From positions 35,055-99,054 of IMG/VR virus record IMGVR_UViG_3300017991_000075: 64,000 nt of DNA; one strand, 5' to 3'. Source of the DNA: a virus. A program made the translations under genes and the position numbers. Numbering within the stretch: the stretch's first letter is position 1; the number at the start of each line of letters is the position of its first letter. Below the pieces are notes generated by a model, which made no database searches, was not told the origin of the DNA, and saw only the letters and a program-made list of their open reading frames with translations. Below are positions 4,536 to 61,868 of the stretch, piece by piece.

Positions 4536-5391
4536 GCTGGTACTCCAGATCAAAGAGCGTAATGCTCAAATCGCTTCCTTCTCAAAACAACGTGATCAAG
4601 CACCCCATATCCTGCAGGAGCTGCACGGTGAATTCTACGACCACTGTCAGCCGTTCCTGAGATCTGCTGTCCGTGAATTCGCTAAGGGTGCCAACATTCA
4701 GGATCACGAAGATCTTGCGCAGGATGCCTTCCTGAAGATCCTTCGAATGATCGATCGCTACAGTCCGAAAAAGGGTCGCCTCCACAACTGGATGACCAAG
4801 ATCACCAGAAACTTGTGCTGGGATTGGCTCCGGAAGAAAAAACCGCAGCTCCTGGCAGAGGGACTGCCCAAGGACACTCTCTCGATCGAACTAAAACTCG
4901 ACGGCGAGTATAACTTTCCTCTGAACTTCGATCGCAAACCGAGTCCGGAGAACTTGATCGAGGATCGCAAGAAAGTCGATAACTACCTTGACAAAGAAGA
5001 CTACGATATCATCAAAGATTCGTTTCCGTTCTACGTCAGCGATCGCCTGATGTTCGATCTACTAACCACCGTCGAACGACACCGCTTCACAGCCTGCCCG
5101 GCCTGCGTCGAAGACGTGCTTGCGCTACTTGAAGAAGAAGAAATCGATTACACCGAGTATGGCAAGCCCGTAGAGATGGTGAACGCGACCATCATCCTGC
5201 TACGAGGGTTATTGATGCGAGTGATCAATCGAGCTGACATCATCAAGATGGCTCTGATCAAAAACCCGGAATTCAACGAACTCCGGGTCTTGACGAGATT
5301 CCTGGGTCTGGAAACAACGGAAAAACTGATCCTGCTACTGGGGGGACTCAGGATACAACTCCCAGCCCCAAGACAATTCTACCGAGATTAG
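4492..5391 (+). CDS. phage RNA polymerase sigma factor (region 2) with atypical, Mor-like C-terminus
   Basis: EDLAQDAFLKILRMIDRYSPKKGRLHNWMTKITRNLCWDWLRK is sigma70 region 2; no recognisable region-4 HTH. Confidence 0.85.
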   Translation: MKSKTMIFDNEAATELVLQIKERNAQIASFSKQRDQAPHILQELHGEFYDHCQPFLRSAVREFAKGANIQDHEDLAQDAFLKILRMIDRYSPKKGRLHNWMTKITRNLCWDWLRKKKPQLLAEGLPKDTLSIELKLDGEYNFPLNFDRKPSPENLIEDRKKVDNYLDKEDYDIIKDSFPFYVSDRLMFDLLTTVERHRFTACPACVEDVLALLEEEEIDYTEYGKPVEMVNATIILLRGLLMRVINRADIIKMALIKNPEFNELRVLTRFLGLETTEKLILLLGGLRIQLPAPRQFYRD

Positions 5392-21100: not shown

Positions 21101-24100
21101 ATCCGTTTCAAGGTTGCTCATCAAATTCGCGAGGAAGGGCGCTAGTTCTTCAAATATAATGATCTTGATGCGCTCGAATATCTGCTTAGAAGTCTCGATG
21201 CTGGCTTTGAATTTTTCTGCGGCCTCAATACCCTTCTTACCGATCGGCGGGATCTTTGATGCGGCAATAATGGACCCGCTGATATCAGCAGTCGCATCCA
21301 TGACCGCACCACGAAGTGTGCCGAATTGAGCACCCATCGCCTGCAGAAGACGTTCTTGGTCCCTCATGCTTAGAGTGCCACTACGGAGAGCTGTAACCAT
21401 CCGCATGAACATCTCGTCAGGCTTCATTTTCTGTAGATCGTTGAATGTGATGCCCACCTTAGCGAAAATCGATGACATCTCACCGACACCGCCCTCACTA
21501 ATCACCTGGGTGACTGTAGATCTCAGTGTCAGGAACGCTTGTTGCACTTCGCTGGCATTCACGCCGAGCATCTCGAAAGCACGAGTCAAACGATCGTACT
21601 GTTCGAGATCTACATCAACAGCAACGGCCTGGCGCTGTAGCTGAACGAGTTTGTTTGCTGTTTCATCAATAAATTTGAACAACTCATTGATGCTACTCTG
21701 AATCATGCCGGTAACAGCGCCGATCACCTTACCGACAATACCAGTGAAAACACTTACCAGACGTAATGGCAACACAGCAACAAAACCTATGAACCCGGTT
21801 AGTGCTTTTACGACCATTCCAATTGTACCGAGGATCAACCCAAGCACGCCTTTGGTCATGCTGGACATCTTCATCAAAAGAGTGCCCGGTAAAGAGATGA
21901 CTTTCTCGAAGGTGTTCGCCAACCAATTTAGTGACGATGATATTCCAGCGGTAACACCTTGAACGACCTTACCAAGACTTCCGAGCACTGTTGAAAAAGC
22001 GCCAACTATTCCCTCATTGAAAACTCTCCCTACCAGTTCTTTTAGGTAGCCGACACCTTTCAACATCTGTTCACCGACAAGAGGTCCAAACTCACGCATC
22101 TTGATAATGCCATCACGGAGTGGACCATACTTCGGCAAAGAACTCGGCATCTGATCTCTGATAGCCGCCTTTAGAATGCCGGCTGTCGCTGCCTTCAGTT
22201 TATTACCGCCAGCGACGATGCCTTTGCCGAGTTCCTGCATCATCGAAATACCGGCTTTTGATGCACCGCTGACAAATTTATTTGTTGCCGTGCCGAGATC
22301 AGCGGTCCCTTTCATCATCTGATTACCGATGATGCTGCCGAACTGCCCCATTGCCACGAAGGTTCTACGGAGGGGTCCTTTCTTTGGCATCGACGACATG
22401 AAGTAATCGGCGACTGTCTGAGCTGCATTTGCGGAAGGCTTTTCGAGACTGCGAACACCTTTCTGCATTTCAGCAGCGATAGCCTCCAGCGTGTTATGTC
22501 CGGTAGCGACGATCTTTTTAGACTTGGCAATTCCGGAGAGACTATTCTCGATCTGTTTGACAACATTCTTCATCTCTGTCGCACGGATCTTGATTTTACC
22601 GAGACCCTTCATCGACAGAGCTTCTTGAATCTTCTTGACGATATTCTCACCAGATAAACCTTCTCCAATACCCTGCAGGAAGGTCTTCATTATGAGATCT
22701 TTGATCGCCTGAGACTGTTCTCCGAACTTATCAATGCCTCTTGTCAAACCGCCAGATAGTTTCTTCTCCAGGCCGTACATAGCATCGGCAACATTGGAGA
22801 ACTGCCGTAAAGTTTCGATACCGAAGTTATCAACAGCCTGGGTCGCCAAACGGCTGTTGGAGCGCATATTGTTATAAAATGCTTTGATACCTTCCGACAT
22901 CTCGGCAAGCTTTGCCGGGACATCACGCTGCATCGTCGCAACAGAACGTTGAAACGCTAGGAAAGGGTCCCCTGTGCGAGCAAGTTCCTCAGAAAACTGG
23001 AATATCTTACTGCCTCGTAGATTACTTTCGATCTTGGAACTGACGCCCTTCACAGCCTGAGCAACAGCAGCCTGGTCCTTGCCGACAGCAAGCACGCCGG
23101 CCAGCAGCTTTTGCAAGCTGAGCCCCGTCTTCTGCATATCCTTAGAAGATGTTGCCAGACCTCCGCTGAGAGCTGCGGCTTTTGTTGTCACCTCAACAGC
23201 ACGACCAGCCTGTACCTCGGATACTTTACGAAGATGAGAAGCGGCTCGTTGACTTTCAGCCATATATGCTTTAGCGGCTGCTGTAGATCCCTCGACAGCC
23301 GTTGTTTTTTCAGCTAGGGCTGCTGCTGTAGTCTGTTGCTGTTTCGTAAGTGCGATCGTTGCTTCAGTATCTGAAATAGCGATCTGCTCGTTGATGTCAC
23401 CACGCTGTCTTTCGAGTGTCTTCTGCACCGCATTCAGCTCGGCAGACATTGCCTTGAGCTGCTCATCGACGGCACCGAAAGTCAATTCTCCGGATTTGAA
23501 TGCTTCTGATACAGCTTCTAACTGCGTCTTCGTGAGACCTGTGGCCTGTATCAGCTCGTCGGTAACTTTCAGCTCGCCCTGTCGAAGCTGCGTCTCCATC
23601 GCCAGGATACGCTCGCCCTTATCGATCTCTGCTGCAAGAGCATCCCGTTTGGCACGCATTTCCTTGAGCGTGACAAGCTCTTGGTTACGCTCATCAATTT
23701 CAGCATTGATAGAATCGATGACAGCTTGAGAGGCCCCTTCAATCCGGGCTCTACCAACACGTTCGACACGCTCCTGCTCGTTACGAGACTGAATCGTCTT
23801 ACCGAGCCGCTCGTTTAGTTTATCGGCGAGCGTATTGCCAGCAGCAACCTCAGCGACGTTGGTATCGAGCACCTTGAACATACGCTCAAAGTTTCCACGA
23901 ATCTTACCGAGCATCCTCTGGTTATCGCCGTAAGCTGTGGAGATACGGTCGATCTCCTTGTTGAGTTCAAGGACCCTGTTGAGTTGAGCGTTGTATTGCT
24001 CGGCAAGTTTCGGCTGCACCTTACCTGTGCGCTCAATGCTGGTGTCGATTGCCTTCATCGTTTCTTTCAACGATGTTTGAGCTTCCTCAAATTCGGCAAC

Positions 24101-27100
24101 TGTCGGCTCTGCTGTCTTCAGAAGATCTCGTAGAGTCACCAATTCCACACGGGCGTCATGCAGCGCATCACGGAATACTCGCATTCCGCCTTCAGGAACG
24201 AGACCTTCGAGTTCTTCAAATGCAAAAGCAGCCTGACGTAACGCCTCATTATTCTGTTTGAGTGTTTCCTCCATTTCACCGACAAGAGCTGTCTCATCCA
24301 GCTTGCCTGACAATGATAGGATATTCTTCTTGTAGAGTTCGTTGGCGGCTTTCAAATCTGGGAATGAGCGCTCGACCTCTGACATCACTGATGTCAGACG
24401 TTCCTGCAGTTTGATAGCTTGTTTTGACTTCGCATCCCGATCCTTTTCACGGGACTCGATCATCTTGGCGCGGCCCTCTTCCAACAAAGCCAACTCGGCC
24501 TCTGCATGCAGCAGTTTGTCGAGAGCTTTATCACTGTGCTCGGCGGGCTCCTGCAGATTCTTGATCTTCTGTTTAGTAGCCTGGATCTCGGCATTGAGTT
24601 CACGAATTGTCTTAGGAACCTGAGCTGAGGCTGTACCCTTCTTCAGGAAACTAATTTCCTTTGTGAGGTTCTTACTCTCCGCATCGAGCTTCATGAAATC
24701 GGCACTGAGTTTCTTTGCCTCCTTCGCAGCAGGACCAAGATCCTCCATCAACATAGCGTACATCATGCCGAGCTTCTTACCGGCCTTAGTATTGTCCGCC
24801 AGGTTGAGAACCATCCCCTTTGTAGCAGCCTCAAGTTTTTCAGCCGCTTTTGTTATATCGATCTGAAACTCGGTCTCTTCAGCAAGTTCTGTTTCAGCTT
24901 TAGCGAACTCAGCCTTGAGTGAAGCGCTGATCTGTTTCTGACGAGATGCCATCTGCGTGACGACATCCTGCACAACCTTCGCAGCGAATGCCCGATCAAC
25001 TTCACCGGCCAGACGTTCTTCCTTGGCTCCTGCGGTTTCACGCCGAACACGACCACCACGAGCCATCCGTTCGATCGGTTTTTCGATGACGACGCCAAGG
25101 GTCTTACCGAACCATGTGATAAACGGACCCATGATCGTTTTGAAATCAGCGCCGACATCTTCCCAGGTCTGCACCATGCGCTGTTCAAAATTCTTAGCAA
25201 ACTCTTCGGCACGATCGATACGGGCCTTCTGATCCTTATCAGAAGCAAAAGACCCCATCGTGAGAAGACCGCTCGCGAACGTACGAGCGAAACCAACCAG
25301 TTTGCCAAACCCTTTGAACAATGTTCCACCAACCCACTTGCCGACAGCAGCCAGGCCCTGGAACGATTTTTTGATGCTTTGGATAGACAGATCGACCGTC
25401 TTGATCGCTGTAGAGAACGAACGGGCAAACAGCCTGCCAAGCTGTGCGCCCATATTGATCATGACCTTCTTTGCGGCGGCTTTGCTGAATGGGGCAACCA
25501 ACGCTAGTAATATCGCATTCTTAGCGAGACCTACGCCATCACCGATGTGCTCACCGATATCACGCCCGACTCTCGCGAGAGCCCCTATAAATCCCGGTTG
25601 TTTCGCAGCTTCACGAATCGTGTCACCGAGACTACGAGCAAGATCTACAGGAACGCCGAACACCTCAGCAATTTTTACACGGGCTGCAACGAACGCCCGC
25701 TTGAAAGCAAGCCCAAGAGGTTCGGTGATGTGTTTGCTGATAAGAGCACCGATATACACACCAACGCGGACAATACCCGGCTTCACCGTGTCGAATGCTG
25801 ATTTCAAAAGCGCGGGGATGCCTTTGACAATATTGAAGATGCCACGAATGACGAGAGGACCAAGAGAAGCGCCGAGGGCGATCCCTATAATATCCATGTT
25901 CTCGGTGACGACAGATAACAAAGAATTGAACGCCTGTTCAGCGTATACCGGTACGGATGCGCTGATGATGCCTAGTTGTGAGAGAGACCAGTCCCAAAAG
26001 TAAGAAAGCCACTGCCGAGCTTCAGATATCTTGATGCGGAGGGTGTTCATAACCCCTCCCATCCAGATACTTGCATCACGGTTGGCGTCATTTAGGAAGT
26101 TCTCAAGCTTCGTTTTCTGCGCAGCATCTGTACCAAAAACAAGTGCTCCGAAGACTCCGCCTGCTGCCATAGCAGCCATGGTCGTTGTCGTTCGGAGCAG
26201 CACTCTGCCGATCTTCATTACGGTGGACTTTGCTTTACCGACCGCGCTAGTAGTATCGACAGTCTTGAAACTGAATGCAGAGCCGATCGTTTTTCCGAGT
26301 TGCTTGAATCGGCCCTCTACCTTGTCTGCGCCGTCTATCGCATCCCGCGCCCCCTTTCGACCGATACGCTCGAATGTCGATACACCGACATCGCGCACGC
26401 CGAGGATCGCCTTGACAATGCGGTCCATTCCCTTTTCCATGCGTTTCACCAGATCATCGATTTGTCTACCGAGCATCTGTACGACCCGCATACCATCCAT
26501 GATAGTCGTCTGTACCTGTTTCACCTTCTTGATGAAACCACCCTTGGCGAACTCCCGGATTAGCTTCGCAATCGGCTTTGCGTTGTCAGCAATCGCCCCC
26601 ATGATCGGGAACATCTGACGAATGGCTCTCAAGAACAATGTCGTTGCAGCACGGCCATCACCGGCTGCAGCTCGAAGTCTTAGTATAAAAGCACTGATTC
26701 TTGTAGCGAACAAACGAACAGCGAACATCACCGTTGTAAACACGCCTACCATCGGCGTAATAACACCAGTAAATCCAACGACCTGAGCCGTCAACAATTT
26801 CATGCTGACGGTTGCTGTCGTTAGTAATGACGTTATCAAACCAAAACGTTCAACGAAAATCTTCGTCCTGTATAACAACCCAATCAAACCGTCGTTCAAT
26901 GCCGCGATAAGGGAGGCAAATCGTGCCAAAGTGCTTTCTGGTTTACGCCCGAGGAACCGCAAAAACAGACTCGTTAGACCCTTCATACCGCCAAAGATCA
27001 GTCCTGTCGTTGCTACGATACCGAGCAAACTCTGTGATATGTTGGTCAAGAAACCAAGCAGCCCCTTGAAGTCGAGCGTTATGATGGCTGTAACAATGTT

Positions 27101-27616
27101 CTTCAGTATCTCTGCAAGAGAACCACCACCTTCAATTGCAGAACGGAGGACACCGGGTATCAATGCTCTAATATCAAATCCCGCTTTTACCAGCCGTTCA
27201 ACAAGAGCTGTAACACCGAGGATGCTACCTAGCACCAACGGGCTCACACGACGAGCACCTTCAGTGATTATTCTGAATACTTTCGTAACGCCATCCTCAG
27301 CATCCTGTCCAACATCCTTGACCTGTTTGCCGAGCCCTTTAGTGATCTGAGTTTGAACGTTGCCGAGTTTGCCGTCGAGCATGTCAAAGAAATTTGTTGT
27401 GATCTTGGCGAACTTCTCAGCGAGATCCGACATGACCGTGATCTTATCAGCGATCTGATCGAGAGCCGTGATGGCCTTGTCATCGATCTTGACTTGAATC
27501 GGTTTACGGCCGGTGAGAACCTTGTCAAGGCGTTCACCGATTTTGTCCAGTTGCTTGAAAACCTGATCGAGGTTCGATTGGAATTCGATTGCAACCTGTC
27601 CGATATTGATCGCCAT
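18116..27616 (-). CDS. tail tape measure protein
   Basis: 3166 aa, helical, Ala/Gly/Lys-rich with hydrophobic segments; IGQVAIEF start; two SSxPKxGPLR motifs; follows the tail chaperones. Confidence 0.93.
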   Translation of the reverse strand: MAINIGQVAIEFQSNLDQVFKQLDKIGERLDKVLTGRKPIQVKIDDKAITALDQIADKITVMSDLAEKFAKITTNFFDMLDGKLGNVQTQITKGLGKQVKDVGQDAEDGVTKVFRIITEGARRVSPLVLGSILGVTALVERLVKAGFDIRALIPGVLRSAIEGGGSLAEILKNIVTAIITLDFKGLLGFLTNISQSLLGIVATTGLIFGGMKGLTSLFLRFLGRKPESTLARFASLIAALNDGLIGLLYRTKIFVERFGLITSLLTTATVSMKLLTAQVVGFTGVITPMVGVFTTVMFAVRLFATRISAFILRLRAAAGDGRAATTLFLRAIRQMFPIMGAIADNAKPIAKLIREFAKGGFIKKVKQVQTTIMDGMRVVQMLGRQIDDLVKRMEKGMDRIVKAILGVRDVGVSTFERIGRKGARDAIDGADKVEGRFKQLGKTIGSAFSFKTVDTTSAVGKAKSTVMKIGRVLLRTTTTMAAMAAGGVFGALVFGTDAAQKTKLENFLNDANRDASIWMGGVMNTLRIKISEARQWLSYFWDWSLSQLGIISASVPVYAEQAFNSLLSVVTENMDIIGIALGASLGPLVIRGIFNIVKGIPALLKSAFDTVKPGIVRVGVYIGALISKHITEPLGLAFKRAFVAARVKIAEVFGVPVDLARSLGDTIREAAKQPGFIGALARVGRDIGEHIGDGVGLAKNAILLALVAPFSKAAAKKVMINMGAQLGRLFARSFSTAIKTVDLSIQSIKKSFQGLAAVGKWVGGTLFKGFGKLVGFARTFASGLLTMGSFASDKDQKARIDRAEEFAKNFEQRMVQTWEDVGADFKTIMGPFITWFGKTLGVVIEKPIERMARGGRVRRETAGAKEERLAGEVDRAFAAKVVQDVVTQMASRQKQISASLKAEFAKAETELAEETEFQIDITKAAEKLEAATKGMVLNLADNTKAGKKLGMMYAMLMEDLGPAAKEAKKLSADFMKLDAESKNLTKEISFLKKGTASAQVPKTIRELNAEIQATKQKIKNLQEPAEHSDKALDKLLHAEAELALLEEGRAKMIESREKDRDAKSKQAIKLQERLTSVMSEVERSFPDLKAANELYKKNILSLSGKLDETALVGEMEETLKQNNEALRQAAFAFEELEGLVPEGGMRVFRDALHDARVELVTLRDLLKTAEPTVAEFEEAQTSLKETMKAIDTSIERTGKVQPKLAEQYNAQLNRVLELNKEIDRISTAYGDNQRMLGKIRGNFERMFKVLDTNVAEVAAGNTLADKLNERLGKTIQSRNEQERVERVGRARIEGASQAVIDSINAEIDERNQELVTLKEMRAKRDALAAEIDKGERILAMETQLRQGELKVTDELIQATGLTKTQLEAVSEAFKSGELTFGAVDEQLKAMSAELNAVQKTLERQRGDINEQIAISDTEATIALTKQQQTTAAALAEKTTAVEGSTAAAKAYMAESQRAASHLRKVSEVQAGRAVEVTTKAAALSGGLATSSKDMQKTGLSLQKLLAGVLAVGKDQAAVAQAVKGVSSKIESNLRGSKIFQFSEELARTGDPFLAFQRSVATMQRDVPAKLAEMSEGIKAFYNNMRSNSRLATQAVDNFGIETLRQFSNVADAMYGLEKKLSGGLTRGIDKFGEQSQAIKDLIMKTFLQGIGEGLSGENIVKKIQEALSMKGLGKIKIRATEMKNVVKQIENSLSGIAKSKKIVATGHNTLEAIAAEMQKGVRSLEKPSANAAQTVADYFMSSMPKKGPLRRTFVAMGQFGSIIGNQMMKGTADLGTATNKFVSGASKAGISMMQELGKGIVAGGNKLKAATAGILKAAIRDQMPSSLPKYGPLRDGIIKMREFGPLVGEQMLKGVGYLKELVGRVFNEGIVGAFSTVLGSLGKVVQGVTAGISSSLNWLANTFEKVISLPGTLLMKMSSMTKGVLGLILGTIGMVVKALTGFIGFVAVLPLRLVSVFTGIVGKVIGAVTGMIQSSINELFKFIDETANKLVQLQRQAVAVDVDLEQYDRLTRAFEMLGVNASEVQQAFLTLRSTVTQVISEGGVGEMSSIFAKVGITFNDLQKMKPDEMFMRMVTALRSGTLSMRDQERLLQAMGAQFGTLRGAVMDATADISGSIIAASKIPPIGKKGIEAAEKFKASIETSKQIFERIKIIIFEELAPFLANLMSNLETDGISLVTTILEHVRAFTRIAFRSLGLIFDYVKENWIKAKDGSQKFWSDVSAVANAFFTFIGGAINTLLKHGGGLVLTWLEMIFAAIPPKIKSTLAKAGIDALAEFIKFAAKAVSFAKNFALSLGEWLWNKIKLGVAVIIESIASGLESILVEIPFIGVDEGDLTSGLQYAIDTLKEEAAETADIWGNTIDRQEKDAARIESFYGGIQKKLKAAVDEGISAENVENAIKVIGNNVDELRDVIGDLGVTSRDVWDAQAEQLRLLDPMTEGYWDQVAALEKQRDTILKNIELHKKEKVSAQELVKHLRMMQELGLVDPGAITAGQVEAQRELRKQASGMMGEINEGFKEAGAAALEGFKKDAPELVRLGQQIGSVYEQEMADMDQRLQDASAEVQKQVEIQENLGKELDKNVHKFDAILTRLVEIVSKQSEYNTKVAELGGNYDKVGQAIASMQAERSKILEATIGSEAEIGFDAAEERFKAISDIAKTIGVGDEERLNKIRHQLYLISAVMQDARKSAVKGDMFGLEVAASVLEDVEDKMAEMLKGLFGETLPESIRESLVKKAPFTAGIVENLKSIERRQFLAVREALRAILKDAASDLGFEIFDAMLPEDERLVHVFETMQQLLTGSTEEVRKRLQYAAEQLQISGAQHNLEARIEERLHALVDLAQYRKQAEQETTQEEEKQNKLLQTRIKELSGAGPDAFSFEAAGFGVKEAKDLKREMRTAEIATAEAVRKLNELERVAVLFKGRKEGEAAKLEAASVRRRLEFQLAKEGITLDSDFDFSTATAGDISAEVKETIEDAMRQVEVYPFIHSNIAAPIGAALGDTITGVIDGSANKAVDAARKAAEETGNSFNATLYRISMFAKKIFDDLTDKAIAYLVNAAESGLSALLTKVFDKTLAAAAMGLLAIATGFLSNLQGSAEIIKDTVDDAVASTEEIRGVISGTTTVAIKETEEAFRASMRGTEKRLDTIIELMRSGAPMSAGNPLGATGGTTI

Positions 27617-44677: not shown

Positions 44678-46762
44678 TTACGCATACGGAACAGATTGTA
44701 CAGGGCCTTGACCCTCGGCCGCTTGAATCGGGTTCTCGGTACGAGGATGCTGCTGTCCCCAGGCCATCATCGCGTCATGCTCATCCATCTCACCGCTACG
44801 TACCTTCTCGCTGACATAAGCATAAATTTCAGGATTACCCTGTAAGAGTCTCTTCATGGATGCCTGGGCCGAAAGCCCTCTGTTGAGATGGAGCGACAAT
44901 CTCTGTAATGCCGCAAGACAGTCAACAACTCCGTCAACACAATCATCATGAGCGCCTTGTGGGAACGTGACGAGTTCTTCAAGTCCGGCCTCGATGTCGG
45001 GTTTCGCCATATCACGATGTGCCGTAAGGGGCACAAAGAATTGATGACGCTCAACCAAAGCCGAAACTCCGAGTGCTCTTGTGGTCTTGTGGCGTTTTCC
45101 ACGTTTCACTTCAATCACTTGTGCATAGAGTCCAAGTGCGATCGACAGCTCATCAAGAAGATCCGCGATCACCTTCTGGAACGCGACTGATTCCACCAGG
45201 AACCCCATGTGCTGCCAATTACGATTGGCATCCAATGTTACGACAGGACCGTCGCCGACTTTACCGGACTGCCAATAGCGCCCTCCGAACTGACTGTTGT
45301 AAGCGACGTAATGCTTGAACATCAAATGCAACATCGTAGCCGCAGACGCTCTGAATCTGTCAATATCAATAAGGTAATATCGACGCTGCGATGGTGAGTA
45401 CCCTATCGTAACGATAGCCGTGTAATCTCTATCGGCTTCTTCAGCTCTCTTGCCACGGGAAGGTGCCGGGTCGATAGAAGTAACGACATATAAATCGTTA
45501 GGCAGGACATCGTAACTGAATCCGGCCGCCATGAGGTTCGCTTCTTGCTCTGGCGTGAAGTACACGCTCTTAGAGATCCAGTAGCGGAACCAATCGCGGT
45601 GGAAGAATCTCGTGCTGTCATCAATCGGTTCTAGCAAGAACTCTTTCGAGAATGCACGACTACCTAGATCACGGCGTTTCCATGCCAGGTAAGAAAGGTA
45701 GAACGTTTCATCCGGATCGAGTTTGGCCTCGATTTCCTCTTCTGAATATGGTCGTCCCGTACGATCAACGGGACGACTCATATCGGGCTTCATCCACTTC
45801 TGCGGCCACAGACAGTTGATGGGGTTCATCTGAGAATCGAAACCGCTACAGGCAGGACGCTTGATCTTCTTCCAGGTAGAAGTCTTTTCCTTGTCCTTAT
45901 GTAGCCGCATCACCAGGTCATCATCATGCACGGTTGTACCGACAACGATGATGTTGCCGATCTCAGAATCGATGACGTTGTAAGCGGTATCCCAGAACCA
46001 GTCCCACAGACGATCTCTTACCATCTGCGTCTTGACGTGCTTGTCCTCGATCACGTCATCAAATATCAGTAGATCCGGACGGAACGATCTAATGCGCCTG
46101 TAACGAGGGCGTCCCCAATAGTCCCGACCGAGGTAGTTATCGAGATCGAGCGTATCAGGCAACGACTCGTTCACACCACGAATAGAACCGCCAACACCTG
46201 CGGTGAAGATCACGACGTGATTCGTGGTCTTGATGTAGGATATCCGCCACGTCTCTTTGGCGTTCTTCTCATCCTGACCAACCAAGTCACCGAAGTGCTT
46301 CCTTATATAAGGGTTGTTCTGCAACTCGGTCTTGATCTTGTTGAGGAACTTTTCCGCCTGTTGCGCTGTCGTGGAGATGATGCCGATATGTCGTTTCTTG
46401 CGGTAACAGACACACCATAACACATACAGGAAATTGATGATGGTCGATTTACCATGTTCACGAGGAAGTAACTTGAGGGAATGCTTGCCGGACTTCAATC
46501 TTTCGAGATCTTCAATGGTCTCCAGATGGAAGTCGCCGAACTCTTCCGTGATGTGCTGACTGCCGAAGCCTCTGCAGAAAAGCAGAAAGTTGTACTCACA
46601 CAGATCGGAAAGATAAGGGTCGAGATCTGCAGGTACTACGTCACCACCAGCCTCGAACTCTTCTTTGATCTCAAGCAGGTACTCTTCGAGCTGATCCCAC
46701 TCCTTTTCGGAAAACTGTGAGACCTTCTCATCGAATGTCGAGATATCGACAGCACTAACCAT
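44678..46762 (-). CDS. terL: terminase large subunit
   Basis: Walker A PREHGKST, GSIRG, RPDLLIFDD, VVGT, nuclease motifs SIDPA, DYTA and HDDCVD. Confidence 0.95.
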   Translation of the reverse strand: MVSAVDISTFDEKVSQFSEKEWDQLEEYLLEIKEEFEAGGDVVPADLDPYLSDLCEYNFLLFCRGFGSQHITEEFGDFHLETIEDLERLKSGKHSLKLLPREHGKSTIINFLYVLWCVCYRKKRHIGIISTTAQQAEKFLNKIKTELQNNPYIRKHFGDLVGQDEKNAKETWRISYIKTTNHVVIFTAGVGGSIRGVNESLPDTLDLDNYLGRDYWGRPRYRRIRSFRPDLLIFDDVIEDKHVKTQMVRDRLWDWFWDTAYNVIDSEIGNIIVVGTTVHDDDLVMRLHKDKEKTSTWKKIKRPACSGFDSQMNPINCLWPQKWMKPDMSRPVDRTGRPYSEEEIEAKLDPDETFYLSYLAWKRRDLGSRAFSKEFLLEPIDDSTRFFHRDWFRYWISKSVYFTPEQEANLMAAGFSYDVLPNDLYVVTSIDPAPSRGKRAEEADRDYTAIVTIGYSPSQRRYYLIDIDRFRASAATMLHLMFKHYVAYNSQFGGRYWQSGKVGDGPVVTLDANRNWQHMGFLVESVAFQKVIADLLDELSIALGLYAQVIEVKRGKRHKTTRALGVSALVERHQFFVPLTAHRDMAKPDIEAGLEELVTFPQGAHDDCVDGVVDCLAALQRLSLHLNRGLSAQASMKRLLQGNPEIYAYVSEKVRSGEMDEHDAMMAWGQQHPRTENPIQAAEGQGPVQSVPYA

Positions 46763-46882: not shown

Positions 46883-47605
46883 CTAACCGAGTCCAAACTG
46901 GCCGCGCAACATTGGGTTCTGGAACACTGCGTATGCTGCAGCACTCACCAGATAAGCATGATGAGACTTGTCGGTATTACCGAGGTTGATCCCCATGAAA
47001 TCGTACGCCTGTGAGGCTCTGACCATAGGGTCAGGGTCAAAACCACCAGCCTGAGCGATCCTCATGAGAGTACCGTTGTCAGCCGAGGCTACGATGTGCT
47101 GATGAGCTTTCACAACCTCTAACGGGTTATTCGGGTTGAAGGCAGGCTCCTGTGCTGGTGGAGGCGGCATCTGTTGGGGCTGCTCCACCGGCTGTTCTAC
47201 TGGTTGCGGTTCCTCGACAGGAGCTGGTTTGTACTGAGGTTGCACCTGCATCGTTGCGGCTTGAGTTTCTTCAGGGATAGCCGAATTCATAGCCTCTGCC
47301 ACGACATCGTAAGGCTCTGGCTTTTCCTGAACGAGCTGAACGTTCTCGTAGGGGTCTACGTCGGTAGTAATCGCCATCTTGTTGAACTCAGCCACCGAGT
47401 CAGGTATCGGGTTATGCTGAGGATGCTCAGGAGCTGCCTGCGGTCCTGCTCGTAATTTGATCTCGACATCACACCGAGTACGATCGGCGAGGTATTGCAC
47501 GATCGCCTCTATGGGGTGCTCATCGAGAACAGGTCTGATACTTTCATCCATCGAACTCTCTCCATCAAACGACTTGCGAATGTTTGTAGTAAGCGACTCC
47601 TTCAT
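46883..47605 (-). CDS. hypothetical protein with P/Q/E linker
   Basis: 240-aa ORF; exact start uncertain. Confidence 0.7.
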   Translation of the reverse strand: MKESLTTNIRKSFDGESSMDESIRPVLDEHPIEAIVQYLADRTRCDVEIKLRAGPQAAPEHPQHNPIPDSVAEFNKMAITTDVDPYENVQLVQEKPEPYDVVAEAMNSAIPEETQAATMQVQPQYKPAPVEEPQPVEQPVEQPQQMPPPPAQEPAFNPNNPLEVVKAHQHIVASADNGTLMRIAQAGGFDPDPMVRASQAYDFMGINLGNTDKSHHAYLVSAAAYAVFQNPMLRGQFGLG

Positions 47606-47831
47606 TGCTCACGGTATGCGAATAGACGTGCATGACCATTGCCTCTCCGTAGTCAGCACGTTTGAAGTCCCTCTTGCTGTTGTGCAAGAAGAATATCGGT
47701 TCAAGGTCATCGACGCTCGGACCATAAGCAACGAAAATTCTTCTAGGTGCCTTATTGCGGATCTCCCGATGCCCGTCAATAGGTCCGCCCCTGAAAATAC
47801 ACATCATGCTTGTTTGTGTTTGTTCTTCCAT
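47565..47831 (-). CDS. hypothetical protein
   Basis: FRGGPIDG N-terminal motif seen in small phage proteins. Confidence 0.6.
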   Translation of the reverse strand: MEEQTQTSMMCIFRGGPIDGHREIRNKAPRRIFVAYGPSVDDLEPIFFLHNSKRDFKRADYGEAMVMHVYSHTVSNEGVAYYKHSQVV

Positions 47832-48262
47832 GTTGCCAGCATTTCAATCCAGTTCACATCATGACGATGCTTGTACGAAACCGCCAGACCTTCTTTCAAT
47901 AATATCGACGAGAGCGTGATGGTCGTTGCTGCAGACAGATAGACATCAGCTAGCCAACGTCCGAAAGAATCTCCCTTGTAAGTCTTCAGCCACACTCTCG
48001 TGCCGGTTGCAGCTATGGTGTCCCGTACGTACTCCTCGGCGATCGCCGCCATCTCCTTCTCAGCCTCGCGATGCTCAGGAGTGCCTGTTCGGGGACGCTT
48101 CTCAGCGCACTGAATCCCGTTGATACGGATACGCTGAGTGGTTGTATTGTAGAAACCCTGATCGATACAGCAGTCGATCGTGTCACCATCAACAACGTTT
48201 GTGACGGCAGCTTCAAACTTGTAGACCGGGGCATTGCGTCCCCTCGCCTTCAGAGTCGCCAT
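47804..48262 (-). CDS. thermonuclease (SNase-like)
   Basis: VVDGDTID, IRINGIQCAE, DSFGRWLA, LLKEGLA. Confidence 0.92.
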   Translation of the reverse strand: MATLKARGRNAPVYKFEAAVTNVVDGDTIDCCIDQGFYNTTTQRIRINGIQCAEKRPRTGTPEHREAEKEMAAIAEEYVRDTIAATGTRVWLKTYKGDSFGRWLADVYLSAATTITLSSILLKEGLAVSYKHRHDVNWIEMLATWKNKHKQA

Positions 48263-48605
48263 GTTTCTCCTTCCACACCTTTTCAAAAAGCGGCCACAGA
48301 CCGAGGGGCTCAAATCCATCCTCAAGCATCATACCGACCTCAATCGGTTTTCCGGTGCTGAACATATGGTTGACCAGCGTCAACATCTGCAGCTCCTTCT
48401 GGATTAGCTCAAATTCATCTGTCCCTGGACCGTACGATAGAAACAGGGCCATGATAGCCGACTTCCAGATCGTTGTTTTGTCATCCGTCCATGTCGTGTT
48501 TGCAGCACTTCTGAACGCCGTCTCAGCACGGACGATAATAGCATCATCACCAAGGTCGTCACCGATCTCTTGAATGATGATCCTATCAATGTTCGTCAAC
48601 GCCAT
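48213..48605 (-). CDS. hypothetical protein
   Basis: 130 aa; AGGAGAAC RBS. Confidence 0.7.
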   Translation of the reverse strand: MALTNIDRIIIQEIGDDLGDDAIIVRAETAFRSAANTTWTDDKTTIWKSAIMALFLSYGPGTDEFELIQKELQMLTLVNHMFSTGKPIEVGMMLEDGFEPLGLWPLFEKVWKEKHGDSEGEGTQCPGLQV

Positions 48606-49527
48606 TTTGTTCTCCTTGTAACTTGCGAATAATGCGCAGCATTAGCCAGTACAACGCCTCTTTGCTGATGTCTTCAAAAACACGTACGGTGAAATCAGGA
48701 AAGGACTTCATGGTGTAATCACACACCTTGGATAGCTCGGCTGTTTCTACATCGATAACGTGCGTATTATCTCGTCCGAAATATACCCGTTGGAACTCTG
48801 TCGTCGATGCCAGGTAGTAGTCCATACCCTCGACTTCAGAATCCCTCACGAGAACAATACCGTCAACAATGGCAACCGGTTCCGGTATCGTAAGAACCTG
48901 CGGCAAGCCCGACATGACAGGAGTGGCTTCTTTGAGGTCGAACAACTCACGCTGCTCCTCACGCCACGCAAAGATGAGATCTTCCCACAGCTCAGATCCG
49001 CAGATCACAAAGTCAGGCCGATTGCCGAAAAACACCGTGTACTGTGACATGGTGGTTCTGATGAAGGCAAGCTTGTGACGAGGCGTCTTGAAATCGTCAT
49101 TCTTCAACAAGTTATTGACAGCCAGCCACCCACGTTCGGTCAGACTGTAATTGAATGCAGTTTTCTCAGCCTCTCCAGCCATGTTACCTGCCAACCTTTC
49201 TTCATCGTCATTTTTTTGTAGAGCCTTCTGTTGGCCTCCAAAAGGGCAGTCCAATTCTCGAATTCCCTCACAAGCATCCGAGGGCTGTGACGGAAGTTCA
49301 CAAGAATGATGTCGTTCACAAAGTCTTCGTTGCGAAGCCAGAACGTTTGGAGGCCGTCGAAAACGGCTGCGTATGCTATCACAGGTTGGTCTAATTTGTA
49401 CGCCCACCTGCTTTTCGCTTTTCTCGTTCTTACTCTGGTCAATCCGGTCCTTGAGTTCATTCTTTAGATTGATCCTCCGTTGACAAGGTGAGTCATCTAG
49501 GCCCTGAGTATTGATCCACTCCGACAT
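48586..49527 (-). CDS. hypothetical protein (start 49527 or 49182)
   Basis: ATG 49527 has AAGGAG and a promoter just upstream; the 5' third overlaps alternative ORF 49140..49460. Confidence 0.6.
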   Translation of the reverse strand: MSEWINTQGLDDSPCQRRINLKNELKDRIDQSKNEKSEKQVGVQIRPTCDSIRSRFRRPPNVLASQRRLCERHHSCELPSQPSDACEGIRELDCPFGGQQKALQKNDDEERLAGNMAGEAEKTAFNYSLTERGWLAVNNLLKNDDFKTPRHKLAFIRTTMSQYTVFFGNRPDFVICGSELWEDLIFAWREEQRELFDLKEATPVMSGLPQVLTIPEPVAIVDGIVLVRDSEVEGMDYYLASTTEFQRVYFGRDNTHVIDVETAELSKVCDYTMKSFPDFTVRVFEDISKEALYWLMLRIIRKLQGEQNGVDEH

Positions 49528-49547
49528 CCCGTTCTCCTTCGGCGCAT

Positions 49548-49575
49548 ATACTATCCCGGTATGAAATCGTGTCAA
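49548..49575 (-). promoter_or_regulatory. sigma70 promoter with overlapping operator
   Basis: TTGACA-16-TAGTAT. Confidence 0.75.
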
Positions 49576-49578
49576 TTG

Positions 49579-49656
49579 AAAAAGGAAACCCGCCCCTGGC
49601 TAAGAAAGGGCGGGCACCTCGGTTCTTACTCAAGCGCATAGGAGAACGTCATGAGC
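49579..49656 (-). ncRNA. putative small RNA antisense to a shared RBS motif
   Basis: Promoter TTGCGG-16-TAGACT with extended TG; UCAUGACGUUCUCCUAUGC segment; CCCGCCC/GGGCGGG terminator with U-tract. Confidence 0.6.
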
Positions 49657-49676
49657 ACGTACAGTCTAGCAAGCCA

Positions 49677-49710
49677 AAAGAAAACCGCAACCTCCTCCTT
49701 GTTGCGGTTT
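49677..49710 (-). terminator. intrinsic terminator overlapping the sRNA promoter
   Basis: AAACCGCAAC-AAGGAGGAG-GTTGCGGTTT followed by TCTTTT. Confidence 0.8.
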
Positions 49711-49742
49711 CCTGTATGCTCATTCAAACGAATGAACAAGGC

Positions 49743-50216
49743 TCAGGCAGACTTTACAGGGTCTATTCCCGTTTTCAATATCGAAATCCACCTGCCGAGA
49801 TCGGCCGCGTCCACATACACACAGCTATTGACTTCCGAGCGAGAATCTTTTTCTCGAAGGTACTGCTCCTTGTACGCTTCCATGTCACCAATGACTTTCT
49901 GGATGCGCTGCTTCGGTTTCAATGGCCAGTATTTGCGGCTCTTAGCAGCCTTCTTACGTTCCTCTGCCGTACCGCATCTCCACACCTTGGCGACCTTACG
50001 AGATCCTGCTGAGACACGTCTCTGACCGCTGTCAAAGATGTCGCCCATCCTCACCAGATCAAGACGATGCTGGCGTACACGACCTGTCAGGTTTCTAAAC
50101 GCAAGAGCTGCTTCGATCTCGATGTCGGTCGCACCAAAATCACCCTGTTCTTCAATATAAGCAAGAACCTCTTGCCTAGCAGTTTCTGCATCGAGTGTTG
50201 CAATTTCATCTACCAC
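49743..50216 (-). CDS. putative winged-helix DNA-binding protein
   Basis: VLAYI..GATDIEI..R..DLV..G.I.DSG.RR..SGR-like pattern. Confidence 0.65.
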   Translation of the reverse strand: MVDEIATLDAETARQEVLAYIEEQGDFGATDIEIEAALAFRNLTGRVRQHRLDLVRMGDIFDSGQRRVSAGSRKVAKVWRCGTAEERKKAAKSRKYWPLKPKQRIQKVIGDMEAYKEQYLREKDSRSEVNSCVYVDAADLGRWISILKTGIDPVKSA

Positions 50217-50227
50217 GACGTTCTCCT

Positions 50228-50788
50228 TTATCCGTTCAGCACAAGCCGCCCGGTCTTCTCCTTCTGTTGCAGGCCGTACGTTAGTTTGCTGCCGGTTTGA
50301 GTCATACGAACACGGCCAAATTCACATGTCTCCAGATATCCGCGTTCCAGCAGGTACTGACAGGCATGCTCGGTTGTTTTTGTCCATGCCTGTAATCGGT
50401 TGGCGAGATCCTGATAGGACATGCCGAGTGTCACTTGACTGTGGAACTGATCGTACAGGTAACAAAGCACCTTATACTGGAGTTCTGAAAATCCGTGCTG
50501 GCGTTCCTTACGTTGATCAGGAAACAGCTTTTTCTTGATCTTGGCTTCTTTCTCACGTACCTGCTCTAAAGTCAACAGGCCCTCTTTCATAGCGATAGCA
50601 TGTCTGGCTCTGACGACAGCGTACCGATATTCCGGGTCTTCGGTACTACAGTTTTGATAGGCGGCAGTGACTTCGTTCTTTATGGCGAGAGGGACTTTGT
50701 ACCAATGGTCCCTGCACATGAGATACCGAGCTGGAATTTCCTTCCGACAATTCATGGCCGCACAATTATGCGGCAAGCGCTGCGTCAT
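50228..50788 (-). CDS. Zn-binding plus winged-helix protein
   Basis: CAAMNC..MCRDHW N-terminus; MSYQDLA..LLERGYL..MTQTG C-terminus. Confidence 0.65.
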   Translation of the reverse strand: MTQRLPHNCAAMNCRKEIPARYLMCRDHWYKVPLAIKNEVTAAYQNCSTEDPEYRYAVVRARHAIAMKEGLLTLEQVREKEAKIKKKLFPDQRKERQHGFSELQYKVLCYLYDQFHSQVTLGMSYQDLANRLQAWTKTTEHACQYLLERGYLETCEFGRVRMTQTGSKLTYGLQQKEKTGRLVLNG

Positions 50789-50822
50789 ATTACTTATCCT
50801 CCCTTCTAAAAATAAAAATAAA

Positions 50823-50927
50823 CGGCGCAAGAAGGATTCGAACCCTCGACCTCCCAGGCATCTGTCATTCCCGTAGCATGCATAGGTCCTGACGCCCAGG
50901 CGCTCTCCCAGACTGAGCTATTGCGCC
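50823..50927 (-). tRNA. tRNA-like gene with enlarged anticodon arm (identity uncertain)
   Basis: GGCGCAA/TTGCGCC acceptor stem, TAGCTCAG..GAGC D arm, GAGGG-TTCGAAT-CCTTC T arm; 38 nt in place of the 7-nt anticodon loop. Confidence 0.75.
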
Positions 50928-50937
50928 GAATGCAAGT

Positions 50938-50966
50938 ATCCTATTACCGACATGAAATCGTGTCAA
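50938..50966 (-). promoter_or_regulatory. sigma70 promoter of the tRNA-like gene, with operator
   Basis: TTGACA-17-TAGGAT. Confidence 0.8.
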
Positions 50967-50968
50967 CC

Positions 50969-50998
50969 AAAAAGCCCTCCTACACTGGAGGGCTTTTT
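50969..50998. terminator. bidirectional intrinsic terminator
   Basis: AAAAAGCCCTCC-TACACT-GGAGGGCTTTTT. Confidence 0.85.
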
Positions 50999-51017
50999 GA
51001 TGAGCTGATCGGGCTGC

Positions 51018-51446
51018 TCAGCTCTCGTCTGACGTGGGGGCACCCTCGTCAGAATCGGACGGTTCTTCAGCCGGTTTCTCACCCTCGGCATGAATCACCA
51101 TATCATGGTCATCAAGAGCTTCAGATCGAATAGCCCTAACCTCAAGAGTCTTGGATTCCAGACCGATCTTCACTCTGAAGAAATGTGTGTCACCGTCAAA
51201 TAGACGATTCGCTGGAGCAAGCACCAAACTTTCAGGCTGTCCATCTGTCGCCTTACGGTAGCGCTCGTAGGCCAGCTTACCGAGACGTATTCCCGTGATC
51301 CTGTAATTGCCATCGAACGATTTCATGAATCGTTTGACAGCTTTACGAATCACCTTCGCAATCTTCGGATGAGCCACTCTCTCCGCAGTGCTCACACCCG
51401 GTGCCTGGTAGTCGTTCTGAATCTTCAGCTCCATTCTGTTCTCCAT
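51018..51446 (-). CDS. hypothetical protein
   Basis: 142-aa ORF ending before the terminator. Confidence 0.7.
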   Translation of the reverse strand: MENRMELKIQNDYQAPGVSTAERVAHPKIAKVIRKAVKRFMKSFDGNYRITGIRLGKLAYERYRKATDGQPESLVLAPANRLFDGDTHFFRVKIGLESKTLEVRAIRSEALDDHDMVIHAEGEKPAEEPSDSDEGAPTSDES

Positions 51447-51636
51447 TTTTATAACCTATGCGATGCGCACCTTCCTCACCTGTTATCGTGAGCTGTCCAC
51501 ATACACTGCAGTGGTACGCACCATACCTGAAATCGAAAGTAGCCGGTAGGCCACAACGGTAACAACGAGGATGACTGTTGCTGTCATGCATCATCCTCTC
51601 CGCCCGTCGCCTGGTTATTTCCATTACCGGCATCAT
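51343..51636 (-). CDS. small Zn-ribbon protein
   Basis: CYRC..CSVC; start uncertain. Confidence 0.5.
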   Translation of the reverse strand: MMPVMEITRRRAERMMHDSNSHPRCYRCGLPATFDFRYGAYHCSVCGQLTITGEEGAHRIGYKNGEQNGAEDSERLPGTGCEHCGESGSSEDCEGDS

Positions 51637-52093
51637 GATCGAGTATCGTCTTTCCGTTCAAATGGTCCAGCTCGTGCTGGACACATCGTGCCTCCAACCC
51701 TTTGAATGTCCGCCGTACTTCATTTCCTGTAAAAGGGCTCTCATACACAATTGTAACGATATTTGCACGCTCAATCTGTACTTTTTTGCCAGGAAATGAA
51801 AGACAGCCTTCTTTATCCAAACTTTTTCCGTGTGCTTCCACAATCTTAGGATTCACTAACGCGACCCTCTCAGGACATGCTATGACACAGATCTGTAATG
51901 GGACGCCGATCTGTGGTGCAGCCAAGCCCAGGCCCTTGCCATTGAGGAACCAAAACATGTCATTTATGAGCTGTTTCAGCTCCTTCCGATTCATGACTTT
52001 CAGCGACCATCTTCTGCAGGGTTGTCGCAGAATCTCACTGCTGCCATGAACCATTCGTAGAAAATTCTTAGGCTTCTTGACTCTGATACCCAT
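51584..52093 (-). CDS. def: peptide deformylase
   Basis: GLGLAAPQ, EGCLS and QHELDH motifs. Confidence 0.96.
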   Translation of the reverse strand: MGIRVKKPKNFLRMVHGSSEILRQPCRRWSLKVMNRKELKQLINDMFWFLNGKGLGLAAPQIGVPLQICVIACPERVALVNPKIVEAHGKSLDKEGCLSFPGKKVQIERANIVTIVYESPFTGNEVRRTFKGLEARCVQHELDHLNGKTILDHDAGNGNNQATGGEDDA

Positions 52094-53869: not shown

Positions 53870-53914
53870 AAAAAGCGTGGCACGGGATCGTACCACGCTT
53901 TGATGATCTGTCAA
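53870..53914 (-). promoter_or_regulatory. overlaid promoter / operator / terminator
   Basis: TTGACA-16-TACGAT; the -10 lies inside hairpin AAAGCGTGG..CCACGCTTT followed by a T-tract. Confidence 0.75.
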
Positions 53915-54224: not shown

Positions 54225-54269
54225 AAAAAACTCCCACGGCGATGATACCGTGGGAGCTGATGTGGTCAA
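54225..54269 (-). promoter_or_regulatory. overlaid promoter / terminator
   Basis: TTGACC-16-TATCAT; the -10 is in the loop of CTCCCACGG..CCGTGGGAG followed by T6. Confidence 0.7.
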
Positions 54270-56328: not shown

Positions 56329-56378
56329 AAATAAAAACCAGTGACACGAGATCATACCACTGGTTTGTTGTTTGTCAA
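56329..56378 (-). promoter_or_regulatory. overlaid promoter / operator / terminator
   Basis: TTGACA-16-TATGAT (extended TG) inside hairpin AAACCAGTG..CACTGGTTT. Confidence 0.78.
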
Positions 56379-57503: not shown

Positions 57504-57547
57504 AAAAATAATCGGACCACCTTATCAGTGGTCCGATTATGTATCAA
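57504..57547 (-). promoter_or_regulatory. overlaid promoter / terminator
   Basis: TTGATA-17-TAAGGT in the loop of the 13-bp hairpin ATAATCGGACCAC..GTGGTCCGATTAT followed by a T-tract. Confidence 0.7.
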
Positions 57548-60787: not shown

Positions 60788-61213
60788 CTAACTCCTTCTG
60801 AAGCGATTGCATAGATGCTGGTAGTACGCTTCCCAATCCGCAGGGAAGGGTTGTACCTGGCCCGGCCACAGTCGCGCCAGGGTACGCCAGCCATAAAGTG
60901 TGTGGGCGACCTCCCACGCATGTGATTGTGGGATCTCGCCAAGTCGTTTGATTGTGTAGTCTGTGAATGCTTTAGGATGCCAGGACGTAGCAAGCTGATT
61001 GATCAACCAGTCCCTCCACAGAGGATCTCGAAGCCAATGCCTGATGGGACTTTGGCTAAAGGTGTGGATGTCTTCGAGATCTTTACCCATCTCATGCTCG
61101 AAACACACCATGAACGCGAACCGACCAGGAGCGGTCTTGTCGCCGTTCATGAACCACCACAGGAGATGATCCTGTGTGGTGCAATTAGCTGCTTGTGCTG
61201 AATGCGCTTTCAC
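60788..61213 (-). CDS. Trp-rich hypothetical protein
   Basis: 141 aa, operon packing. Confidence 0.6.
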   Translation of the reverse strand: MKAHSAQAANCTTQDHLLWWFMNGDKTAPGRFAFMVCFEHEMGKDLEDIHTFSQSPIRHWLRDPLWRDWLINQLATSWHPKAFTDYTIKRLGEIPQSHAWEVAHTLYGWRTLARLWPGQVQPFPADWEAYYQHLCNRFRRS

Positions 61214-61868
61214 GGAATACGAACTCCGGTATCTGATAACATTCCTTCAAAAGTGTCTGAAATCGATTGACGAATTTCTGACTGGACTGCTTCGGCTCCA
61301 GGCACATTGGAAATCTGTAGAATCCGTCTTCGAGCATTTTGTTGATCTCTCCCCGGATCTCATCCTGTGACATCTTGATAGCAGACCAATGCTCGCCTTT
61401 GGAAGGAAGTGCGACATGAGCTTCGATCGCCATCATCACGAGATCTACTTTCTTGACAATGTTACGGGTCTCCGGAGTCATGAGAGATGGGAACAGCGGA
61501 TGGATGTAACTCTCGACTATCTTGATGAGAAATTTCTCTTGTTCCTTGAGTTCCGGAGCAAGTTCTTCAGCCACCTGTTTCCACGGGCGGATCTGGTCAC
61601 CCCAATACGCCTCATGGGCATCGTGCATGAAAACAGCCATTCGAGTAATCGGGTCCTTGACACCGAGGATATGATGTGCATAAAACTCGGCAGCGATTGA
61701 ATGCTCCGCTACACTGATACCGGGGTCGGCATGACCGCCGTATCTGTAGGTATAGGCCAAAGAGTGGGCTATATCGTAGATATCTATGTCCGCCACCGTT
61801 GGCAGAGCCAGGTTGACGCCCTTCCCCTTGAAGGTTTCCATCACATATTTTTTACTTAGATCGGCCAT
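61185..61868 (-). CDS. HD-domain nucleotide phosphohydrolase (YfbR/YfdR-like)
   Basis: DIAHSL..RYGGH..SVAEHS..HDAHEAYWGD...P.K. Confidence 0.9.
   Translation of the reverse strand: MADLSKKYVMETFKGKGVNLALPTVADIDIYDIAHSLAYTYRYGGHADPGISVAEHSIAAEFYAHHILGVKDPITRMAVFMHDAHEAYWGDQIRPWKQVAEELAPELKEQEKFLIKIVESYIHPLFPSLMTPETRNIVKKVDLVMMAIEAHVALPSKGEHWSAIKMSQDEIRGEINKMLEDGFYRFPMCLEPKQSSQKFVNRFQTLLKECYQIPEFVFRESAFSTSS

Follow-up and report, generated by a model that had tools for sequence, protein, structure and literature searches.

A candidate small RNA mirroring the ribosome-binding site shared by early genes of a phage from a sediment metagenome

Introduction

Lytic phages end early-gene expression with proteins; in T4 this involves RegB, RegA and promoter shut-off. 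We know of no phage for which a small RNA (sRNA) has been established that shuts down an entire class of that phage's genes by way of a ribosome-site tag common to them. RegB, an endonuclease that cuts GGAG, and RegA, a repressor, end the translation of T4 early messages, and since RegB acts through shared GGAG ribosome sites, the logic of such a shut-off has a precedent (PMC3014915). RNA also controls initiation within single T4 messages, as the ribosome sites of genes e, soc, 49 and I-TevI are sequestered in early read-through transcripts (PMC3014915). The c4 antisense RNA of phages P1 and P7 blocks translation with loops that pair around a phage ribosome site (review PMC12197685). Among bacteria, RsaE and RoxS are anti-Shine-Dalgarno-loop sRNAs of Firmicutes (PMC6158497, PMC8216469), and in the icaR mRNA of Staphylococcus aureus the 3'-UTR pairs with the 5'-UTR (PMC3868564).

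The phage locus described here resembles each of these systems in part. As in RsaE/RoxS, its candidate RNA would be short and terminator-ended, with a pyrimidine-rich anti-Shine-Dalgarno sequence in an open loop, many predicted message targets and no long seed. It has one UCUCCU loop, whereas RsaE/RoxS have several C-rich motifs; it is also phage-encoded and directed at the extended site (AUAGGAGAAC) plus AUG of the phage that encodes it, is unconserved, has no match in Rfam and is a prediction from sequence. With RegB and RegA it would have in common the exploitation of a ribosome-site motif that early genes share, the effector being the proposed RNA in our phage and proteins in T4. The c4 RNA belongs to a curated family and serves one operon (ant) in immunity, whereas the candidate matches no Rfam family and has many predicted targets.

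Results

The phage and the locus

The source contig is 99,054 bp long, and its last 64 kb are the stretch of DNA analysed here (the window). A single DNA run, from a sediment metagenome, carries the contig, as one identical copy, and no RNA run is listed for it. The contig is that of a phage: a large terminase is encoded at 44678-46762, and Pfam searches identified ThyX, DUF3310, a Phage_holin_4_1 holin and a protein with sigma-70 region 2 elsewhere in the window. Gene calls, made with our own heuristic, place almost all genes between 5388 and 64000 on the minus strand. The holin hints at a host among the Firmicutes, in which promoters of the TGn type are frequent, as are anti-SD-loop sRNAs that act independently of Hfq. 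The phage-encoded sigma factor (4492-5391, plus strand) matched Sigma70_r2 at E 6.5e-16, with no second sigma region at E 0.001. The tail region holds a single ORF of 3166 aa (18116-27616, minus strand), and the gene at 61185-61868, which had been labelled an HD hydrolase, gave no match to an HD domain in Pfam at E 0.001.

The candidate unit lies in a 215-nt intergenic region between a 157-aa gene (49743-50216) and a 313-aa gene (48586-49527, minus strand), the latter heading the last sigma-70-type operon ahead of the packaging genes. Read along the minus strand, the stop codon of the 157-aa gene is followed by a 9-bp hairpin, terminator 1, the promoter-like elements TTGCGG and TGcTAGACT, a hairpin with UCUCCUAU in its loop, terminator 2, promoter P2 and finally GCGCCGAAGGAGAACGGGAUG, the start of the 313-aa gene. 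The features are as follows.

49743 to 50216, minus strand: 157-aa gene, with ribosome site AGGAGAACGUC-GUG
49717 to 49738, minus strand: 9-bp hairpin between the 157-aa stop codon and terminator 1; it folds
49676 to 49712, minus strand: terminator 1, arms 49712-49701 and 49691-49680, 12-13-bp stem, -14.1 kcal/mol; its 9-nt loop is the Shine-Dalgarno-like AAGGAGGAG and its tail UUUUCUUUU
49663 to 49690, minus strand: putative sRNA promoter, TTGCGG (49690-49685), 16-nt spacer, TGcTAGACT (49671-49663)
49628 to 49656, minus strand: anti-ribosome-site hairpin, 8-nt loop UCUCCUAU at 49645-49638
49634 to 49653, minus strand: mirror segment, 20 nt, complementary to the consensus early ribosome site plus AUG (CAUGACGUUCUCCUAUGCGC)
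49578 to 49615, minus strand: terminator 2, stem 49615-49588, 10 bp (7 G-C), 8-nt loop, T-rich tail
49548 to 49575, minus strand: promoter P2, TTGACA, 16 nt, TAGTAT; strong, of the downstream operon
49525 to 49545, minus strand: start region of the 313-aa gene, GCGC..AGGAGAACG..AUG, cis partner of the mirror segment over 16 bp in three blocks
49651 to 50025, plus strand: 124-aa ORF downstream of the mirrored ribosome site

Searches for relatives were negative throughout. Covariance models of Rfam 15 gave no match in 49520-49760 at E up to 10, and across 47000-52000 Rfam returned tRNA, two sub-threshold chance matches and nothing else. Neither the flanking proteins, the terminase nor a 27-mer of the element found a relative in phage records, IMG/VR, or metagenome and genome contigs; in a set of 5.8 billion proteins the query itself was the only match, and no variant or inverted joint at the locus was found in one DNA run of contigs.

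A hairpin between two terminators

The sequence-only reading had proposed a complete minus-strand unit bounded by two terminators, and every coordinate that it gave proved accurate. Both terminators are present, 96 nt apart, and the terminator with a U-tract that was thought to close a ~78-nt RNA was confirmed as terminator 2, with its 10-bp G+C-rich stem. Our scan gave it -18.7 kcal/mol, and it would provide the sRNA with an intrinsic terminator as its 3' end. Within the set of clear hairpin terminators from the window's intergenic regions, terminator 1 ranks weakest. Terminator 2 is strong and stands 96 nt beyond it without a gene of its own, which counts in favour of an sRNA. No other convincing tandem terminator pair was found in the window region, and the sole other close terminator-like pair there flanks a promoter and a tRNA-like RNA gene. 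That the two terminators bracket a hairpin suggests an RNA meant to end at terminator 2, outside both neighbouring messages, and the fact that the other pair brackets a promoter and a tRNA-like gene favours a short base-pairing RNA.

The fold expected of such an RNA was borne out. The 5' hairpin has an energy of -8.4 kcal/mol, against -4.1 +/- 2.0 for shuffled sequences (p 0.04), and in the predicted 78-nt RNA its UCUCCUAU loop is unpaired with probability 1.0, leaving an accessible seed. The same hairpin also folds in a 167-nt read-through tail, so that RNAs starting at 49656 or at 49745 would carry it alike.

The proposed promoter fared less well. Its elements are where the sequence-only reading had put them, with the -35 inside the 3' arm of terminator 1, but their quality is that of chance, the strand holding 45 promoter-like sites as good or better where random sequence holds 54 +/- 7. 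Evident early promoters of the phage match TTGACA at 5-6 of 6 positions, and the putative sRNA promoter is far weaker. Three of the eight clear phage promoters that we read have TGn, their -10 boxes being TAGTAT, TAGGAT and TATGCT, and the TAGACT form of the putative promoter, judged by its letters, resembles some of these genuine ones. Strictly, the sRNA would need no promoter of its own: terminator 1 is the weakest of its kind, and the loop hairpin forms in the 167-nt read-through tail as well. A further promoter-like site (49751-49778, minus strand; TTGAAA, 16 nt, TAAAGT, 9 of 12 positions) is found within the 3' end of the 157-aa gene, and an RNA from it would begin at about the stop codon and carry all four hairpins. 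The candidate late-promoter motif CGTAGGTATRG was not seen in the stretch that directly precedes the unit.

Several smaller features were seen around these elements. The terminator 1 loop AAGGAGGAG (49692-49700, minus strand) is a strong Shine-Dalgarno mimic that could pair over 7 bp (one G-U, by eye) with UUCUCCU in the anti-RBS loop, which follows 45 nt further on; no other clear intergenic hairpin terminator of the window has a complete AGGAG or GGAGG in its loop. The terminator 1 loop might form a kissing interaction with the anti-RBS loop or serve as its decoy. Just past it, at the TTG of the putative -35 and hence within the 3' arm of terminator 1, starts an ORF of 13 codons (49651-49690, minus strand) that ends at a UGA in the mirror segment (CAUGA); its spacing of 3-4 nt from SD to start was taken as too short for it to count as a likely gene. 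Four early-gene cassettes on the minus strand (53870-53914, 54225-54269, 56329-56378 and 57504-57547) have a -10 box in the loop of a terminator hairpin, so that read-through RNA would end there and RNA initiated there would be without the 5' arm.

The tRNA-like gene (50823-50927, minus strand) scores 45.4 bits against the Rfam tRNA model, is 105 nt long with an insertion of ~30 nt in the anticodon region, and is not called by ARAGORN. It lies past a terminator and has its own strong promoter (TTGACA, 17 nt, TAGGAT). A 15-mer, TTGACACGATTTCAT, is common to this promoter (50952-50966) and to P2 (49561-49575), both on the minus strand; it is partly palindromic (GACAYG..CRTGTC) and may be an operator. 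Its 43 matches in IMG/VR all looked like chance, and tblastn found no common genes.

A mirror of the early ribosome site

The tag that the anti-RBS loop faces is a property of one class of genes. The minus strand has 23 copies of AGGAGAAC and the plus strand two; of the 23, 17 stand 2-5 nt ahead of a start codon. All 17 lie in early or accessory regions, the holin excepted, and late genes carry other Shine-Dalgarno forms. The AAC extension, in which the early site presumably departs from complementarity to the 16S 3' end, is confined to early genes and counts for the sRNA reading.

We asked how far the mirror segment exceeds what chance or a generic anti-Shine-Dalgarno sequence would give. When its duplex energy with 112 start regions was compared with that of controls in which CUCCU was kept and the flanks were shuffled, the segment outscored 300 of 300, and it ranked first of 113 when set among the reverse complements of the 112 real start regions (mean of the ten best). 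It is thus a mirror of a consensus-type early site plus AUG and not a generic anti-SD sequence. GGAGAAC occurs eight times on the plus strand, and the mirror segment holds the only intergenic copy.

Genome-wide comparisons were less favourable. The two plus-strand copies of AGGAGAAC compare with ~1.6 expected, a chance frequency. In random Markov-1 strands of 99 kb the maximum number of start regions matched was 19.4 for 8-mers, 9.7 for 9-mers and 4.1 for 10-mers, against 22, 14 and 7 for the mirror segment. By duplex energy alone, the mirror window came second of the 67 windows with an anti-SD core in intergenic space, one G+C-rich window elsewhere matching or slightly exceeding it. The evidence for pairing beyond chance is therefore mixed: the segment outdoes the CUCCU-keeping controls, and random strands come close to it across the genome. 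By a rough estimate, a wrong-strand AGGAGAAC that is intergenic and has a start codon at the right distance would be expected ~0.02 times per genome, which is suggestive but weak, given a scan of ~250,000 windows. No inverted similarity was found around the mirror segment beyond ~17 nt; a relic of a larger inverted cassette could be ruled out, the similarity extending over at most 17 nt and terminator 2 being oriented for the minus strand.

Predicted targets

The sequence-only reading had listed seven longer complementarities (57487, 61868, 50216, 53851, 56310, 55850 and 53564), and all of them hold on comparison by eye with the start regions. The length of the list, offered as evidence of many targets, does not: a single occurrence of the tag's complement matches every gene that bears the tag, so that a long list follows automatically from one 8-mer of chance frequency.

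We then scored interactions with duplexfold and cofold ensembles, which approximate IntaRNA and CopraRNA. When the 78-nt RNA was combined with each start region (-50 to +25) in cofold ensembles, structure costs included, 18 start regions came out at -10 kcal/mol or better, compared with 1-11 for shuffled seeds, and early genes made up 16 of these 18. The best predicted target was the gene directly upstream, 50216, with a cofold ddG of -21.2 kcal/mol, followed by 55850, 56310, 61868 and 53851. The mirror segment is also closest in sequence to the site of 50216 itself (14 of 16 positions identical). The seed carries a C opposite a position at which 10 of 17 sites have A, and a G at that position is confined to a subclass that includes both neighbours; the element thus fits the neighbouring genes better than it fits the consensus.

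The arrangement recalls icaR, in which an anti-SD motif downstream of the gene for a DNA-binding regulator is likewise complementary to that gene's ribosome site. In the phage, by contrast, the motif lies past the first terminator and would share a molecule with its target solely after read-through.

The upstream gene and the opposing frame

A caveat attached to the sequence-only reading was that the mirrored site might be the relic ribosome site of a plus-strand gene, one whose frame was mostly an antisense shadow of the 157-aa gene. Codon usage was scored with a log-odds model trained on 49 long phage genes, and 131 shadow ORFs were scored with it. The 157-aa ORF scored 0.179, with real genes at 0.188 +/- 0.059, and a full HMMER search found 142 distant homologues of its protein. 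Five of 30 family members weakly matched MarR_2, and the product is probably a winged-helix DNA-binding protein, as judged from these matches. The plus-strand ORF scored -0.157, with shadow ORFs at -0.197 +/- 0.100; it had no family matches, and no plus-strand promoter was seen for 49651-50025. With a shadow-type score on one strand and a coding-type gene with homologues on the other, the ORF is best described as an antisense shadow, and the caveat of a relic site or plus-strand gene was set aside.

Predicted pairing with the start of the next gene

Folding of 49760-49500 added an element to the earlier reading, a strong predicted cis pairing of the mirror segment with the adjacent ribosome site. 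MFE and centroid structures alike join the segment to the start of the 313-aa gene through three blocks (CAU/AUG, CGUUCUCCU/AGGAGAACG and GCGC/GCGC), with a pair probability of 0.95-0.99 at three transcript lengths. The 313-aa ribosome site is paired at 0.97-0.99 in long transcripts and at 0.57 +/- 0.12 once the mirror segment is shuffled; in the transcript from P2, which lies inside the loop of the cis helix (49575-49548) and so yields an RNA without the 5' arm, the value is 0.20.

In T4 gene e, too, an upstream arm masks the SD and AUG, and a promoter that serves the gene itself is placed between that arm and the ribosome site. The stable 16-bp helix of our phage and its arm-free P2 transcript agree with that arrangement. 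The differences are that the phage arm is ~105 nt away and not local, that a strong terminator sits in the loop, and that P2 is sigma-70-like whereas the T4 promoter is late. Long transcripts of the gene e type would have to pass two intrinsic terminators upstream of the 49527 site, one of them inside the loop.

Discussion

The anatomy of the locus, its fold and its complementarity to early start regions are plain; the existence of the RNA, its accumulation and a repression of translation by pairing are inferences. We hold it possible, at somewhat short of an even chance, that the element is a working anti-ribosome-site small RNA that acts in trans, including an icaR-like feedback on its own operon. 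The spacer between the terminators would be made as a short RNA with its 3' end at terminator 2, either as a molecule of ~78 nt initiated near 49656 at the weak extended -10 promoter or as the ~165-nt read-through tail of the upstream message past a leaky terminator 1. The 5' hairpin would keep UCUCCUAU open in its loop, and once the stem opened, pairing would spread over the entire mirror of the standard early site plus AUG. The RNA would then pair with AUAGGAGAACnnnAUG start regions, compete with the 30S subunit and lower early and accessory translation. The effect should be strongest on the 157-aa winged-helix gene, then on 55850, 56310, 61868, 53851 and 57487, and late structural genes, with their other ribosome sites, would largely escape. 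A sigma-70-type promoter would act from the start of infection and fits a late shut-off poorly.

Almost as probable is that the element has no function, the tandem terminators closing the early/accessory region ahead of P2 and the mirror being due to chance or to a short recombination relic of gene-cassette borders. The chance-level promoter fits this account, as do the plus-strand count of AGGAGAAC (2 against ~1.6 expected) and the nearly equal match counts of random strands. A weakest-of-all terminator 1 makes a back-up terminator sensible, ~250,000 scanned windows will turn up rare coincidences, and the likeness of the mirror to the adjacent 50216 site (14 of 16) is consistent with a local origin. 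A recent inverted duplication is nevertheless unlikely with a similarity of at most ~17 nt. Also against this account are the low expectation (~0.02 per genome) for an intergenic AGGAGAAC at the right distance from a start codon, the placing of the motif precisely within a hairpin loop whose stem is more stable than in shuffled sequences (p 0.04), and the lack of a second convincing tandem terminator pair in the window region.

The remaining accounts assign the mirror another role. It could insulate the next gene in cis, masking the 49527 site and AUG in read-through transcripts (for example under antitermination) while P2 transcripts are translated. We regard this as improbable: the helix is present in both MFE and centroid at 0.95-0.99, the site is 0.97-0.99 paired against 0.20 from P2, and T4 e, soc, 49 and I-TevI provide a precedent (PMC3014915), but a strong terminator between the arms and another before them would leave few transcripts with both, any inverted ribosome site near a similar site folds in this way, and 49527 ranks just 4th by duplex energy and 18th once structure costs are taken into account. 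The same two arms, 49634-49653 and 49525-49545, might act at the level of DNA, as an inverted repeat around terminator 2 and P2 that serves as a pair of protein-binding sites or forms the ends of a small invertible promoter segment. They are alike at 16 of ~20 positions and bracket a promoter, yet that identity is simply the identity of two ribosome sites, the ~88 bp between them is very short for known invertases, and the lone public run yielded one identical contig without an inverted joint, where contigs can hide rare forms; we give this account hardly any weight. Just as little credence goes to a plus-strand gene that starts at ATG 49651 and overlaps the 157-aa gene in antisense. It would have a perfect phage-type site (AGGAGAAC, 3 nt, ATG) and a 124-codon frame, but that frame has a shadow-type codon score (-0.157, against 0.179 for an opposing gene with 142 homologues), a composition rich in S/L/R/C and poor in D/E/K, no family matches and no plus-strand promoter; it also crosses terminator 1, and its accepted neighbours from 5388 to 64000 are all on the minus strand.

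A more ambitious form of the small-RNA reading is that the element is the RNA counterpart of T4 RegB/RegA, in which a single loop mirror of AUAGGAGAAC plus AUG turns off translation of ~17-20 early and accessory genes as a class, with late genes escaping and the terminator 1 loop as a possible decoy. We consider this rather unlikely.

The present case, a lone metagenome assembly, is weak as proof. If the reading is true, a stereotyped ribosome site can be an address label for RNA-based temporal control, and the phage would hold a simple, portable switch by which one RNA acts on many genes.
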